Translations under genes and position numbers: made by a program
In this document: positions 6,488 to 25,463 of the stretch, piece by piece
Layout: every line of letters begins with the position of its first letter
How positions within the stretch are numbered: the first letter of the stretch is position 1
Notes under the pieces: generated by a model
Databases searched by the model: none
Told to the model about the DNA's origin: nothing
What the model saw: the letters and a program-made list of their open reading frames with translations, nothing else
Source: Candidatus Aenigmatarchaeota archaeon
GTDB taxonomy: Archaea; Aenigmatarchaeota; Aenigmatarchaeia; QMZP01; QMZT01
Direction: 5' to 3'
Assembly (NCBI GenBank): GCA_041489155.1
Contig: JBGPQP010000004.1
Coordinates: forward strand, 31,030 to 95,029
DNA length: 64,000 bases

Positions 6488-6685
6488 ATGACGCTGAAGC
6501 TCATCGTCTCCTGGATTTTCGGAGGGGCGCTGATAGCAGCGGCCGCGTGGATTCTTGGCCATCTCGACGAGACACTGGGCGTTTCGCCTGCATCGTACTG
6601 GACCGCGTTTTTCCTTGCCTTCGTGCTCATACTCATAGGCGGCCTAGCGTGGATAAGCGTCGCCACGGCGACGTCGAAGCACTAA
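6488..6685 (+). CDS. Small two-TM membrane protein
   Basis: Two hydrophobic helices; coupled to rpoD. Confidence 0.7.
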   Translation: MTLKLIVSWIFGGALIAAAAWILGHLDETLGVSPASYWTAFFLAFVLILIGGLAWISVATATSKH

Positions 6686-6768
6686 CACGGGAATAAATTC
6701 TGAAAAAGCGGTCTGATTCTTGGAAACATTCGCAAGGAATAAAAAGGGGTTGCGACCAATAATAAAGC

Positions 6769-6987
6769 ATGTTGAACGAAAACGAGATGCAGATACTGGG
6801 AGTTTTCAGCCAGCGCCTCCTCATCAGAAGGGACGAGCTGAGAAGCGTCCTTGCTGAGAGCGGCGTCAACGACGGCACGATGACGATAAACAGGCTCAGT
6901 AGCCTCGGATACCTGAAGTTCATCGAGGCCGTGGGCGCTCCGTGCTACACGATAACGCAAGAGGGGATCAGGGCACTTAAAAAATAA
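6769..6987 (+). CDS. Small winged-helix protein
   Basis: wHTH-like pattern ending LGYL...YTITQEGIRAL. Confidence 0.65.
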   Translation: MLNENEMQILGVFSQRLLIRRDELRSVLAESGVNDGTMTINRLSSLGYLKFIEAVGAPCYTITQEGIRALKK

Positions 6988-7074
6988 GTTATAAGCCCCT
7001 TCTTTCTTATTATAAATTACTTAGCACAACGTAGATACGCTGATGCAGGTTGAACCTGCGTCTTTTGAGACGTT

Positions 7075-7100
7075 AGCCCCGTGTTGTAGCGGTCAAGCAT
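7075..7100 (+). repeat. Duplicated 5' end of tRNA-Gln (direct repeat of 8031-8056, 24/26 identical)
   Basis: AGCCCCGTGTTGTAGCGGTCAAGCAT vs AGCCCCGTGGTGTAGCGGCCAAGCAT. Confidence 0.92.
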
Positions 7101-7130
7101 AAATTTAAACATACAAATTCAACTATATAT

Positions 7131-8045
7131 ATGAGGGTAAAACTTTTAGATGGCAAACAAAGAGCATTAATAGAGCAAGTAAAAAATAAAAATAATTTTA
7201 ATTTTAAAGAACTTTCGACATTTCTACGCGTCAATGGAGCAGCATTAAGAGAATGGTATTATGAAAGATGTCTTTTACCTTACAATATTTTTAGAAAGTT
7301 AGATGAAGAAAAAAACTTCGAAAAATTTATAATGGAAATTAGAGAACAGAACTGGGGTCAAAGAGATGGGGGTAAAAAATCATATGGGAACACAAAGAAA
7401 ATAAAAAAACCGCTTTTCGACGAAAGATTGGCAGAACTCGTGGGTATTTTATTAGGAGATGGCAACATCTATTCGTATAGAAATGTGAAAAACGGTAAAG
7501 TAATATCGACGCATAGTATAAGAATTTGTGGTGATTCCAGAAATGATCACGAGTATGTAACGGAACATGTTTCAAATTTGTTACAAAATCTTTTTGAAAT
7601 AAAAACTCGTTTGTACAAAAGTAAAAAAAGAAACGCAGTTTATGTAATAGCTGATGGAATTGAACTAGTGAAATTTTTCAATTCATTTGGCTTGAAACCC
7701 GGAAATAAGATAAAAAACAATCTTACGATTCCAGAATGGATATGGCAAGATCCAGTATTTTTGAAATCTTGCATACGTGGTTTATTTGATACGGATGGTT
7801 CAATCTATGAATTAAAACCGCATTGGCCGGGTTTGATTCAAATATCGTTCAGAAATTATAATAAACTCCTCCTGAAAGATGTAGAAAGAGCCTTGAAACA
7901 ATTAGGTTTCATTACATCGAAAATACATGACAAAAAAATTTGCATAACGAAACAAAATGAAGTTGATAAATTTTTTAAGGAGATAAAACCTAATAATCCT
8001 AAACACGTTAAGAAATATGAAAAAATCAGAAGCCCCGTGGTGTAG
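7131..8045 (+). CDS. Double-motif LAGLIDADG homing endonuclease with N-terminal HTH-like region
   Basis: LAELVGILLGDG and CIRGLFDTDGS motifs; clearly AT-rich versus host; TTTAAA at 7104 about 25 nt before ATG; last codons and TAG lie inside tRNA-Gln. Confidence 0.9.
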   Translation: MRVKLLDGKQRALIEQVKNKNNFNFKELSTFLRVNGAALREWYYERCLLPYNIFRKLDEEKNFEKFIMEIREQNWGQRDGGKKSYGNTKKIKKPLFDERLAELVGILLGDGNIYSYRNVKNGKVISTHSIRICGDSRNDHEYVTEHVSNLLQNLFEIKTRLYKSKKRNAVYVIADGIELVKFFNSFGLKPGNKIKNNLTIPEWIWQDPVFLKSCIRGLFDTDGSIYELKPHWPGLIQISFRNYNKLLLKDVERALKQLGFITSKIHDKKICITKQNEVDKFFKEIKPNNPKHVKKYEKIRSPVV

Positions 8046-8243
8046 CGGCCAAGCATTTTTCTGTATTTTTGATTGCAGAAAAATGGGCTAGGCATGCAGG
8101 GCTTTGGATTCACAAAGCTTCCAAAGCTTTGAGAACCCCCCACTAAGGGATTTCCGTGAACGCTTTGGCGGACGCGGAAGCTCCTTCAGGGGTTCTGTGA
8201 AAGAAGAAACCCGGCGACGGCGGTTCGAATCCGCCCGGGGCTA
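8031..8243 (+). tRNA. tRNA-Gln(TTG) with D-arm intron (8053-8091) and canonical 37/38 intron (8108-8208)
   Basis: Acceptor AGCCCCG/CGGGGCT+A; anticodon TTG 8104-8106; T arm GGCGG-TTCGAAT-CCGCC; BHB GGCC/GGCT with AAG/AGG bulges; BHB CTTT/GAAG; one A28.G42 mismatch. Confidence 0.9.
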
Positions 8244-8254
8244 TCCTTTCTCAA

Positions 8255-8659
8255 TCAAATGTGATAAAAAGTGTAAGTTCCCCTCGTGTCCCTGCCCTGG
8301 CCGGAGACTGCGATGGTGATGGTCAGGGGATTGTTGGGCGGGGTTTTGCCCCAGTTGGAGCAGTTCAGGGCATAGAGCATCTCTATAGAATACGTCCTGC
8401 CGTACTCCTCCTGGAAAGACGTCTTGAGGTCCTCGAGCCTGTTCTCGAAGCTGTCCTTGGTTTCGTTGCAGTAATAGGTCTCACGTATGGTCTGGTTGAG
8501 GCCGCTTAGTATGTTGTTGAAAATCCGGACGTCCATCGCCATGAAAGGCTCGGTGATGTCGACCTCGGAATACTGGAACAATGCCTGCTGGACGATGAAT
8601 ATCATGCCTACGAGGAAAACGATTGCGACAAGAAACAGCTGGCCCTTTTTCTTCCCCAT
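8255..8659 (-). CDS. Class III signal peptide (pilin/archaellin-like) protein
   Basis: MGKKKG|QLFLVAIVFLVGMIF prepilin-peptidase-type N-terminus. Confidence 0.7.
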   Translation of the reverse strand: MGKKKGQLFLVAIVFLVGMIFIVQQALFQYSEVDITEPFMAMDVRIFNNILSGLNQTIRETYYCNETKDSFENRLEDLKTSFQEEYGRTYSIEMLYALNCSNWGKTPPNNPLTITIAVSGQGRDTRGTYTFYHI

Positions 8660-8792
8660 GAAAATAATTTGCGCGGCTTAAATAAAAAAACGAAAATGAA
8701 AGGAACGAGATAAGACAGAGTGCGACGGAGGGGTGAGTCTCGCTATCGCCCCTGTTATTCCTGCCCCTTTCCCCTTCAAGCGTCGTCCGGGT

Positions 8793-9995
8793 CTAAGCAA
8801 GCAAGGGTATGCCGAGTTCCATGTGGATGTTCCTCTCCGGAACCGGCAATGTGTGCGTGACTGCGCCGAGCGGACCCATTACGTATGGCGATTTGACGCC
8901 CGTAACAACAGTGATGACCTTCAGCCTGTTTTTGTAAGCCGGGTCTATCCTCGCGCCCCATATCACCGGAGCGTCGGGATCCAGCTGCTTCGAGACGTAC
9001 TCGCCTATCCTGCTTACCTCTTCGAGTTTGAGGTCGTAGCCGCCGGTTATGTGTATGAGCGCGCCTGTCCCGCCGTGGTAATCCACGTCAAGCAGCGGGT
9101 GCGACATCGCCCTTATTATCGCTTCTTCGGCTCGCTCTTTGCCGTCGGATTCGCCGAAGCCTACGGTGGAGACACCACCGATTTGCATTATCGCCTTTAC
9201 GTCGGCGTAGTCCAGATTGACGAGCGAAGGCTGCGATATCGTCTCGGTTATGCCCTTTATCATGTTCGCAACCAAGTCGTCGGCGACATAGAACGCTTGT
9301 TTCAGCGGAAGGTTGCCTGCTATCTTCAAAAGCCTGTCGTTCTCTATCGCTATAACAGTGTCAGAAACCTGCCTCAATGCGTACAAACCGTCCTCCGCCT
9401 TGTTCATTCTAGCGCCCTCGACCTTGAAAGGCATGGTCACGTTCGCTATTACTATCGCACCCATCTCCTTCGCTATCCTCGCGATCACAGGCGCCCCGCC
9501 TGTTCCCGTTCCTCCACCCATTCCGGCGACAAGGAACAGCATGTCTATGCCTTCCAGCATCTTCTTTATTTCCCTCTCGCTCTCTTCTGTCGCCTTTTTG
9601 CCTACTCCCGGATATCCTCCTGCACCAAGACCCCTCGTTACCTCCCTGCCGAGCAAAAGCTTTTCGTGCGCATTGGTCATGCCAAGGTGTTTCGCGTCCG
9701 TATTCATCGCCACGGTCTTCGCTCCCAGGATGCCTATGTCGGTCAGCCTGGATATCGTGTTGTTGCCGCCTCCGCCCACGCCTACGACCAGAATCTTCGC
9801 GCCCATCATGTCCAGGTCGAACTCCTCCTTTATCCTCTGGTAGCAGTCTGTTGTCGAGCCACCTCCCTTGACCGGCTCAGCCTCTTGCTTCTTGGCCTCT
9901 GCCGGCTTGGCTTCCGTTACGGATGCCGTTTCTATCGCCGCCTCCATCGCCTTCACGGCGGTTTCGGCCGATTCCTGCGCTTCCGTTGCTTCCAT
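8793..9995 (-). CDS. ftsZ: Cell division protein FtsZ (FtsZ2-like) with Ala/Glu-rich N-terminal extension
   Basis: GVGGGGNN, GMGGGTGTG, NLDYAD. Confidence 0.95.
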   Translation of the reverse strand: MEATEAQESAETAVKAMEAAIETASVTEAKPAEAKKQEAEPVKGGGSTTDCYQRIKEEFDLDMMGAKILVVGVGGGGNNTISRLTDIGILGAKTVAMNTDAKHLGMTNAHEKLLLGREVTRGLGAGGYPGVGKKATEESEREIKKMLEGIDMLFLVAGMGGGTGTGGAPVIARIAKEMGAIVIANVTMPFKVEGARMNKAEDGLYALRQVSDTVIAIENDRLLKIAGNLPLKQAFYVADDLVANMIKGITETISQPSLVNLDYADVKAIMQIGGVSTVGFGESDGKERAEEAIIRAMSHPLLDVDYHGGTGALIHITGGYDLKLEEVSRIGEYVSKQLDPDAPVIWGARIDPAYKNRLKVITVVTGVKSPYVMGPLGAVTHTLPVPERNIHMELGIPLLA

Positions 9996-18743: not shown

Positions 18744-19511
18744 TCACACGCTCTCGCTCTTTTCGAAGAAATACGCTCCAAGGAAGATCATGACCGCGGA
18801 GAAACCCAGCAAAACAGCGAGATCGGTCATAATGCCGAACGCAGAGAAGCCGATCAGAGAAGCGCGCATGCCGTCGATGCCGTATGTCAGCGGGTCTATG
18901 AATGATATCACTTTTATGAAAGCGGGCAGGTTGTCAAGAGGGAACAGCGCACCTGACAGGAAGAACAGCGGGAAAATCACGAAGTTCATTATCAGGTTGA
19001 AGCCCTGCATGTCGCGCATCTTCGAGGCGAAGACCAGGCCCAGGCCTATGAATGTCGTCGCTATCAGCAGCATGAACACGACTGCTGTAAGGAATGCAAG
19101 AATGCCGGGCACCCTGAAGCCTATTACCATGGATATCAGGAGAATCAAAACGCCCTGGATAAGAGCGGTGGTCGCGCCGCCCGCTATCCTGCCCAGCACG
19201 ATGGAAACCCTGTTGACCGGCGCAATCATTATTTCCTTGAGGAAGCCGAACTCCCTGTCCCATAAAACCGAGATGCCTGCGAACATCGAGGTGAAGAGCA
19301 TGCCCATGCCGACTATGCCGGGCACGAGGAAGCTTATGTAGCTCACTCCCCCGCTAAGTCCGGGAATTGCCATGCCCGAGAAGCCCATGCCCATGAACGA
19401 CAGGAACAGCAGCGGCATCGCGAGCATGCCTATTATCCTGGATTTAGCCCTTACAAATCTCTTCATTTCCCTGAGCCACAAAACATAAATCGCGTTAGGG
19501 TTTACCAACAT
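18744..19511 (-). CDS. ABC-2 type transporter permease
   Basis: WDREFGFLKE, FLSGALFP, PLTYGID. Confidence 0.92.
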   Translation of the reverse strand: MLVNPNAIYVLWLREMKRFVRAKSRIIGMLAMPLLFLSFMGMGFSGMAIPGLSGGVSYISFLVPGIVGMGMLFTSMFAGISVLWDREFGFLKEIMIAPVNRVSIVLGRIAGGATTALIQGVLILLISMVIGFRVPGILAFLTAVVFMLLIATTFIGLGLVFASKMRDMQGFNLIMNFVIFPLFFLSGALFPLDNLPAFIKVISFIDPLTYGIDGMRASLIGFSAFGIMTDLAVLLGFSAVMIFLGAYFFEKSESV

Positions 19512-19527
19512 AATATCAATCCCCGAA

Positions 19528-20535
19528 TCACATGCCACGCCCGGCTCTCCTTCTCATCATCTCCCTGCCGAACTCGCCCTGGGATGATTCGTGCTCCCTG
19601 ATGGTCTTGCCCGTGAAGTGCAGGAATACGTCTTCGAGGCTCGGCCTGTGCAGGTCGACCGAGCGGATGTTTACGCCCATTTTCGGTGCGTTGCAGACAA
19701 GCTCCGGAATTCTTTTCTCACCATGGTCCATGGTGAGGCAAAGTTCGCCGTCATGCATTTTCGCGTTCTTTATCCACTTGAGCGCCTTCACATATTTCAT
19801 GTATTTTTCCATGTTGCCCTCGATTTCCAAGCACACTACGTCGCCTCCAAGAACGTCTTTAAGTTTTTTCGGCGTGTCGAGTGCGACGATCTTGCCCCGG
19901 TCGATTATCGCTATCCTGTCACAAAGGTAATCCGCTTCCTCCATGTAATGTGTTGTGAGTATGATGGTGACATGCGCTTCCTTGTTCAGCTTTTTTATGT
20001 ATTCCCAGATGTGCCTTCTCGTCTGGGCATCGAGGCCGAGCGTCGGCTCGTCGAGGAAAAGGACCTTCGGCCTGTGTATCAAGCCACGCGCGATTTCCAG
20101 GCGGCGCTTCATGCCGCCGGAATATTTCTCCACAAGCATGTTCGCCTTGTCCGTGAGTTCAACAAGCGCCAAGACCTCATCTATCATCTTCCTTCGCTCG
20201 TCAGTCGCCATGCCGTACATCATGCCGTGGAACTCGAGGTTCTCCCTGCCGGTCAATTTGTTGTCAAGCGCCGGGTCCTGGAAGACAATGCCTATGCTAT
20301 TCCTGACATCGTTGGTGCTTTTCGTGACGTCAAAGCCGGCGACCTCGGCATAGCCCGACGTCGTCCTAAGAAGCGTTGAGAGGATGTTTATAGTCGTGGT
20401 CTTTCCGGCTCCGTTAGGTCCCAGCAGGCCGAAAAGCTCGCCGTTCTCGACAGCGAAGGATATGCCGTCGACTGCCGTGAAACCGTTGAACTTCTTTACC
20501 AGGTTATCTACTTTTATTGCCGGCATAGGCATCAC
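19528..20535 (-). CDS. ABC transporter ATP-binding protein (DrrA-like)
   Basis: GPNGAGKT, YSGGM, LDEPT, TTHYM. Confidence 0.95.
   Translation of the reverse strand: MMPMPAIKVDNLVKKFNGFTAVDGISFAVENGELFGLLGPNGAGKTTTINILSTLLRTTSGYAEVAGFDVTKSTNDVRNSIGIVFQDPALDNKLTGRENLEFHGMMYGMATDERRKMIDEVLALVELTDKANMLVEKYSGGMKRRLEIARGLIHRPKVLFLDEPTLGLDAQTRRHIWEYIKKLNKEAHVTIILTTHYMEEADYLCDRIAIIDRGKIVALDTPKKLKDVLGGDVVCLEIEGNMEKYMKYVKALKWIKNAKMHDGELCLTMDHGEKRIPELVCNAPKMGVNIRSVDLHRPSLEDVFLHFTGKTIREHESSQGEFGREMMRRRAGRGM

Positions 20536-25343: not shown

Positions 25344-25463
<120 letters not shown>

Follow-up and report, generated by a model that had tools for sequence, protein, structure and literature searches.

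How archaeal tRNA introns at odd positions, tRNA fragments and split tRNA genes originate is an old open question. Collaborative homing, in which a free-standing endonuclease gene lies beside an intron without an open reading frame (ORF), is known from F-CphI and the psbA intron of cyanophage S-PM2 and from mobE and the I-TevIII intron of phage T4. In fungal mitochondria, mobile endonuclease ORFs such as that at Allomyces atp6 bring along a substitute gene end and leave the old end behind as a remnant. Here we describe a tRNA-Gln(UUG) gene in a 64,000-nucleotide stretch of DNA (the window, to which coordinates refer unless a contig is named) from a Candidatus Aenigmatarchaeota archaeon; the first part of this gene occurs twice, on either side of a LAGLIDADG homing endonuclease gene. 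It is probable that a mobile cassette was inserted at the D-loop/D-stem (position 21 to 26) of this chromosomal tRNA gene. The closest published anatomy, judged from those parts of Sugahara et al. (2012, PMC3293823) that describe it, is the tRNA-Thr(GGU) locus of Caldiarchaeum subterraneum, where a 5′ fragment of the tRNA precedes a 1.8-kb insert encoding a putative DNA recombinase, after which comes the tRNA with a new intron at position 24/25; the insert is explained there by integration at an attachment (att) site. In the part of its text on which we rely, a preprint of 2026 on Asgard tRNA introns (10.64898/2026.10.13.758758) still leaves the route of intron arrival open. Our literature searches turned up no account of LAGLIDADG genes that adjoin tRNA genes in archaea.

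Results and Discussion

The window is part of contig C4 of an archaeal genome bin of 1.13 Mb in 39 contigs. The 5′ part of the tRNA-Gln(UUG) gene forms a direct repeat at positions 7075–7100 and 8031–8056, with 24 of 26 bases identical. With up to 3 mismatches allowed, the repeat gave only these two matches in the 64 kb, and none of 100 shuffled sequences gave any. The copies differ at 7084/8040 (tRNA position 10), where the upstream copy has T and the downstream copy G, and at 7093/8049, where GGTC stands against GGCC. Between them runs the endonuclease gene (7131–8045, forward strand, 304 amino acids). Its last codons, AGC CCC GTG GTG TAG (8031–8045), are at the same time tRNA positions 1–15, so that the stop codon occupies positions 13–15. 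This arrangement had been noticed in a first-pass annotation made from the DNA letters alone, and its account of the 26-nt duplication, of both substitutions and of an AT-rich LAGLIDADG ORF ending in SPVV* on the first 15 tRNA positions proved accurate. It had also stated that T in place of G10 weakens the D-stem of the upstream copy, where T10 indeed gives a T·T mismatch.

The same annotation had proposed a comparison with relatives lacking the ORF, and its outcome speaks for the insertion of an element. In four genomes of the same genus (G001, G002, G003 and G004, referred to here as congeners) the syntenic tRNA-Gln(UUG) gene lies between the same flanking genes and has neither the nuclease gene nor an intron in the D-loop; the polymorphism concerns one precise site, which is empty in 4 of 4 congeners. 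In G001, the block that precedes the upstream copy of the window, including its TATA-like run, directly precedes the intact tRNA. The upstream copy stands at the former 5′ end of the gene and is therefore the displaced original (the stub, 7075–7100, forward strand, tRNA positions 1 to about 25 with 2 substitutions), after which 995 bp were inserted. The TATA-like element of the original tRNA promoter would be the run at 7007–7019 (forward strand). Relative to the G001-type allele, the net insertion spans 7101–8095 on the forward strand, with ends that can slide by 4 nt (GCAT is repeated), and it coincides with a break in base composition: the G+C content is 0.26–0.35 along the nuclease ORF (about 0.30) and 0.47–0.58 in the flanks (about 0.52). 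Judged from the sequence comparison, this insert, with its putative promoter, nuclease gene, replacement 5′ exon and 39-nt mini-intron, arrived recently, and with 2 changes in 26 positions the stub appears young.

The duplication is not an assembly artefact, a possibility raised at the first pass, because the nuclease/tRNA junction is identical in contigs from two samples. Run X1, which may be the source sample, yielded contigs over 6895–7734 and 7739–8600 without a difference, and the first of them bridges the junction between stub and cassette. A contig of run X2, from another sample and another study, matches exactly over 7980–8135 and bridges both the nuclease/tRNA junction and the mini-intron. 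A second X2 contig (6700–7114) reaches only 14 nt beyond the stub and was not counted as a bridge.

The tRNA gene itself extends from 8031 to 8243, as called by ARAGORN with introns allowed, a mode in which the program misnamed its anticodon. Joining of the exons 8031–8052, 8092–8107 and 8209–8243 (all on the forward strand) gave a 73-nt cloverleaf that ARAGORN recognised as tRNA-Gln(ttg). The first of these is the replacement 5′ exon with the 5′ strands of the acceptor and D-stems and the D-loop; the second carries the 3′ strand of the D-stem, the 5′ strand of the anticodon stem and the anticodon UUG; the third holds the 3′ strand of the anticodon stem, the variable loop, the T-arm, the 3′ strand of the acceptor stem and the discriminator base. 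In its default mode ARAGORN reported no tRNA anywhere in the 64-kb window, nor did Rfam at a permissive threshold over 6500–9000, because two introns hide the gene.

The first intron is the mini-intron of 39 nt at 8053–8091 (forward strand), which splits the D-loop at position 21/22 and is absent from the syntenic tRNA of the congeners. In the unconstrained minimum free energy structure of 8031–8243, a 4-bp helix (GGCC/GGCU) lies between an AAG bulge and an AG(G) bulge, and the same structure holds a hairpin of 12 bp with an 8-nt loop. The splice sites fall into the bulges and removal of the insert restores a standard tRNA; the predicted fold thus identifies it as an archaeal bulge-helix-bulge (BHB) intron. 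The second intron, 101 nt at 8108–8208 (forward strand), occupies the canonical position 37/38, and its removal gives the cloverleaf. Brute-force enumeration of its boundaries was uninformative, as ARAGORN accepts almost any join. An intron of 51–82 nt is found at the canonical site in each of G001–G004, and by this comparison the canonical intron is ancestral. The single mismatch of the cloverleaf, A28·G42 in the anticodon stem (8098/8213), is not a sign of decay because G001 has it as well; the stem is fully paired in G002–G004.

The other glutamine tRNA of the genome, with anticodon CUG on contig C5, shows no invasion and no D-loop intron. Introns occur in 19 of 30 ARAGORN calls genome-wide, several of them long, and an intron-bearing tRNA-Ile was found on C4 at about window positions 25344–25462 with introns allowed. 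Many tRNA-Gln(UUG) genes of family-level relatives (L085–L116) read GGGCCTTGGA, which by a single hand count puts C instead of U at anticodon-loop position 33.

The product of the nuclease ORF matched the Pfam family LAGLIDADG_3 (PF14528) in two stretches with an E value of 2.7e-14 and 53.6 bits (cutoff 22.5). It consists of an N-terminal helical domain of about 90 residues followed by two LAGLIDADG domains with the motifs LLGDGN (D110) and FDTDGS (D222); G109-D110-G111 and D220-T221-D222-G223 are invariant in an alignment of 31 sequences. The AlphaFold2 model (predicted local distance difference test score 93.5) shows the alpha-beta-beta-alpha-beta-beta-alpha double-domain fold, and the top Foldseek matches were PI-PfuI, I-Tsp061I and I-DmoI (E values 6e-9 to 1e-8). 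A sequence search of the PDB returned only weak intein matches (E value 0.016), so that the fold search was needed. Residues 1–90 matched no Pfam family; this domain may add DNA binding. With its motif pair and predicted fold intact, the nuclease looks functional. The closest database relatives among the matches listed are 49–53% identical, and a relative from the same genus, in G002, 42%; together with the break in G+C content, these identities point to a foreign origin of the nuclease cassette.

A second copy of the nuclease lies outside the window on contig C7 (19500–20240; locus L004, 1400–2215). This GC-rich LAGLIDADG gene (19500–20130) encodes 209 amino acids with 29% identity to the window protein and has Arg at the position of the second catalytic Asp (FDSRGS). 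It reads into a tRNA-Ser(GCU) gene, its TGA stop codon being tRNA positions 8–10. An intron follows GGTTAA in the D-loop of this tRNA, and upstream of the ATG there are a remnant resembling a stub and a TATA-like run.

The layout recurs well beyond the genus. In an order-level set of 41 related genomes we obtained 45 homologue matches, of which 39 free-standing ORFs were kept after removal of six (intein-like giant frames, a short partial match and a match at a contig end); homologues are present in 23 of the 41 genomes. A tRNA gene adjoins 31 of the 39. By a strict script rule, a same-strand tRNA starts between −30 and +18 nt from the ORF stop at 19 loci; 3 more, whose tRNAs have introns in the T-arm, satisfy it on visual inspection, one shares 82 nt with a tRNA on its own strand, and 8 run antisense into a tRNA 3′ end (L010, L021, L052, L054, L056, L059, L062 and L066). 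Three others (L013, L061 and L068) lie within large-subunit (LSU) rRNA genes on the same strand according to Rfam, the classic setting of archaeal rRNA introns, and no RNA gene is visible near the remaining 5. The closest relatives are located at tRNA-Gln genes and more distant ones at tRNA-Asp(GUC), tRNA-Ser(GCU) and other tRNA genes (anticodons read by eye).

In a sample of named public metagenome-assembled genomes (MAGs), titled Nanoarchaeota, Woesearchaeota, Pacearchaeota and, in one case, Paceibacterota, the ORF ends on or beside a same-strand tRNA-Gln 5′ end at 13 of 15 loci. The lack of any tRNA association among homologues, named at the first pass as a result that would speak against invasion of the tRNA gene, was hence not observed in either sample. 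In genomes that are unrelated or in which the locus is not syntenic, the element occupies the corresponding site of tRNA-Gln(CUG) and tRNA-Gln(UUG) genes, as in the MAGs titled Nanoarchaeota, Woesearchaeota and Pacearchaeota and in G002, G033 and G037. A database search returned 293 homologous proteins at E ≤ 1e-5; in 61 of the best 120 of these 293, the C-terminal residues are read from a tRNA-Gln 5′ end, in either of two frames, and 35 of the 61 finish with S-P-V-V or a close variant.

The antisense class is a mirror image at tRNA 3′ ends, and some of the tRNAs concerned have T-loop introns (L021). Two isolated tRNA-Gln 3′-end fragments, short duplicated pieces of acceptor stem and T-arm, were seen on contig C75 of G036 near 38.9 and 44.7 kb (L077/L104), and a 5′ half is lacking within 430 nt; possibly they represent 3′-end stubs of this mirror-image class.

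For the left end of the cassette, an alignment of the 70 nt preceding the start codon was made for 13 loci including the window. Each of them shows what is left of a tRNA D-loop, with CAA as its last bases, and after it a conserved T(A/T)TA(A/T)A block whose spacing from ATG AGR is fixed. In the window (7101–7130, forward strand) this TATA-like box lies about 22–27 nt before the ATG, and from its conservation we infer that it is probably the nuclease gene's own archaeal promoter, giving a leaderless mRNA. Homologous stubs end in GGTCAA about 38 nt before the ATG in the 12 other loci, and the acceptor-stem part of the stub is recognisable only in the window, L039 and L040. The stub/cassette junction is identical over the 13 loci, which comprise unrelated neighbourhoods and both Gln isoacceptor genes. 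The decay of the stubs in relatives indicates that they are not maintained as exons.

These stubs bear on a reading in which the upstream copy serves as a working 5′ exon, or as an alternative one, and 7097–8091 is a single coding BHB intron of about 995 nt, comparable to the LAGLIDADG-encoding introns of archaeal rRNA and released as a circle with the nuclease mRNA. At the window locus the stub is nearly intact and stands behind the native promoter-like block, and its GGUC AAG CAU pairs with AUG GGCU AGG of the 3′ splice region (duplex of −10.2 kcal/mol). The D-loop GGYC is moreover self-complementary, so that two copies could in principle make the central helix of a BHB, and an insert of 17–18 nt in the D-loop of a congener's tRNA resembles such a tandem copy. 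However, the adjacent exon pairs far better (−23.3 kcal/mol, with the 12-bp hairpin and its 8-nt loop in place of a loop of about 970 nt), and T10 leaves the mismatched D-stem already mentioned. The acceptor strand of the stub is lost at most of the 12 further loci in the alignment, which argues against its being kept as an exon, and at 7 of the 13 named loci a complete intron-less tRNA follows the nuclease gene, where no such splicing is needed. An intron-encoded endonuclease calls for an upstream exon that is functional and conserved; the upstream copies are mostly decayed in relatives, and that of the window pairs more weakly than the adjacent exon. Sequence and pairing therefore suggest that the downstream copy is the 5′ exon used in the cell. 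Splicing from the upstream copy, the second model of the first-pass annotation, is disfavoured by the decayed stubs, the weaker pairing and T10, and we regard it as improbable, other than as a minor side reaction at the window locus, where the stub is still nearly intact.

The congener's insert mentioned above belongs to a tRNA-Gln(CUG) gene (locus L118; G001, contig C25, 470–2070, minus strand, at about 60–530). It looks like an internally deleted tandem copy of the gene's own 5′ exon, and its two GGCC AA segments could pair into a minimal BHB. The canonical intron of the same tRNA contains an ORF with an HNH-like C-terminus (Pfam HNH at an E value of 0.022 only), a frameshift at an A-run and an end in the 3′ exon.

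The link between nuclease gene and D-loop intron was followed across 50 complete tRNA-Gln genes, a census to which 31 of the 41 genomes contributed, with D-loop introns called by an anticodon-offset rule. The intron at 21/22, directly after the D-loop CAA, is present in 4 of 4 nuclease-linked genes and in 5 of 46 nuclease-free genes (Fisher p 5.5e-4, the relatives not being independent); among the other nuclease-free genes, 7 have an earlier D-loop intron and 34 none before the anticodon. The four linked genes represent three families and both isoacceptors. Within the genus, intron and nuclease gene are either jointly present, as in the UUG gene of the window and the CUG gene of G002, or jointly absent. 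By analogy with collaborative homing, this distribution is compatible with an intron that moves together with the nuclease gene and interrupts its target, but the link is incomplete in the named sample (see below).

Alternatively, the nuclease might not be a homing element for tRNA-Gln, or no longer be one; it would sit there for strong transcription or be domesticated, the repeat would stem from a recombination unrelated to it, and the D-loop intron would have been acquired independently. D-loop introns are missing from 7 of the 13 named nuclease-linked tRNA-Gln genes and present in 5 of the 46 nuclease-free ones. The GC-rich C7 copy with its substituted motif aspartate resembles an old, perhaps inactive resident, and with only 52% identity to each other, two copies in a single Pacearchaeota genome give no sign of recent spread within that genome. 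Against this, four congeners have an empty site and the junction falls exactly inside the tRNA; the base composition is foreign; the stub/cassette junction stays the same across the 13 loci described above; and both catalytic motifs of the window copy are intact. On these grounds a resident without homing function appears quite improbable, somewhat more so than the use of the upstream exon. Less credible still is the view that the duplication represents attL/attR of an integrase-type element (SSV- or pNOB8-type, or as in the Caldiarchaeum tRNA-Thr) or an assembly chimera: a duplicated tRNA fragment and a gene reading into a reconstituted tRNA do resemble pNOB8-type borders as far as these are described in PMC3293823, but the one long ORF of the insert matches only LAGLIDADG families in Pfam and no integrase or recombinase, contigs of a second sample bridge the nuclease/tRNA junction, and dozens of assemblies have the same layout.

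We therefore favour homing of a mobile cassette into the tRNA gene. From left to right, this cassette would consist of a TATA-like box, a leaderless LAGLIDADG gene, a replacement for the first 22 nt of the tRNA and the 39-nt BHB mini-intron. Its arrival would have moved the resident 5′ part about 956 bp upstream, where it is kept as a stub behind the old promoter. In the mechanism that we infer, the enzyme cuts intron-less tRNA-Gln genes near position 21–26 and the break is repaired from the cassette-bearing allele, with the stub as left and exons 2 and 3 as right homology arm. As these arms are halves of the tRNA gene itself, the cassette could enter any sufficiently similar tRNA-Gln gene regardless of its neighbours, which would explain the same junction everywhere. 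The replacement exon would keep the tRNA gene alive, and the mini-intron, or sequence changes in other lineages, would split the target and shield the invaded allele. The cassette promoter, possibly together with the old tRNA promoter, would yield a joint mRNA-tRNA precursor. RNase P cleavage at 8031 would free the tRNA and cut the stop codon off the nuclease mRNA, and the splicing endonuclease would remove the mini-intron and the older canonical intron from a working tRNA that begins with the downstream 5′ exon. That a free-standing element invaded the gene and supplied a new 5′ exon had been the first model of the first-pass annotation, and this part is supported by the empty site in the congeners, the native promoter block at the stub, the recurrence of the design and the intron link; its further suggestions, self-limited expression through RNase P and immunity through the intron, are retained here as conditional elements of the scheme.

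Several observations weigh against this explanation. In sequence, the replacement 5′ exon matches the resident type (G9, G12 and GGCC, as in G001) and not the type usual beside related nucleases, so that a closely related donor or later gene conversion between the copies is needed. Of the 13 tRNA-Gln genes linked to a nuclease in the named sample, only 6 contain an intron at 21/22; as the link is not universal, immunity would come from something else or the target would lie elsewhere. None of the 46 nuclease-free tRNA-Gln genes has an upstream stub scoring above background (best score 20; linked loci 34, 26 and 17), and this includes the 5 with a 21/22 intron, so that a route from repeat deletion to orphan introns left no direct trace here. 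One census gene (G017, contig C2) offers only 7 nt of upstream sequence from which to judge its nuclease linkage. Finally, no contig joining 7100 to 8057, as expected of an empty allele, was found among four runs, although contigs cannot show absence.

More tentatively, such cassettes could account more generally for the origin of non-canonical tRNA introns and orphan tRNA fragments in DPANN archaea, a generalisation we consider possible but rather doubtful. After homing, which would bring in the replacement gene end and the shielding BHB mini-intron, recombination between stub and replacement exon would delete the nuclease gene and leave a D-loop intron like those in the 5 nuclease-free genes; alternatively, a rearrangement would part the stub from the tRNA and seed split or fragment genes. 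If true, the same logic would also cover T-loop introns and the homologues that run antisense into tRNA 3′ ends. The locus suggests one possible route to tRNA introns at odd positions and to orphan tRNA fragments, and it offers a dated natural before-and-after pair within one genus, uninvaded in four congeners and with stub, nuclease, new exon and new intron here. The family is large and its enzyme small and confidently predicted, which opens the target site, intron immunity and the mobile unit to bench testing; its members would be new meganucleases with tRNA genes as natural targets.

Comparison with known systems

The nuclease shares its predicted fold with I-DmoI, I-Tsp061I and other single-chain LAGLIDADG enzymes from BHB introns of archaeal rRNA genes (template modelling scores normalised to the target of 0.70–0.74), as well as two LAGLIDADG motifs with catalytic Asp and an archaeal host, and 3 of the 39 homologues are themselves located in LSU rRNA genes. 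Those enzymes are encoded within a spliced intron, whereas the window gene lies outside of it, between stub and replacement exon, and its product has an additional N-terminal domain. As in collaborative homing, the nuclease gene stands beside and not in a small intron that would interrupt the target and move along. The known cases concern group I introns in phage protein genes, in contrast to a protein-spliced BHB intron in a cellular tRNA gene here; furthermore, the window cassette duplicates part of the gene that it targets, and 7 of the 13 named cases lack the intron. With Allomyces atp6 the locus has in common that a free-standing endonuclease gene inserts and that the gene is kept working by a replacement end. 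There, it is the 3′ end of a protein gene in an organelle; here, it is the 5′ end of a tRNA gene on an archaeal chromosome, with the stop codon of the nuclease inside the tRNA. The Caldiarchaeum tRNA-Thr locus, as described in the parts of PMC3293823 cited above, comes closest: it likewise has an upstream tRNA 5′ fragment, a mobile gene in the same orientation immediately ahead of the tRNA, an additional intron at a non-canonical position (24/25 in Caldiarchaeum, 21/22 in the window) and an allele free of insert and intron in close relatives. Measured against that description, the cassette reported here differs in its size of about 1 kb, in carrying only a LAGLIDADG endonuclease whose frame ends in the tRNA, and in its recurrence at tRNA-Gln genes across many DPANN archaea.

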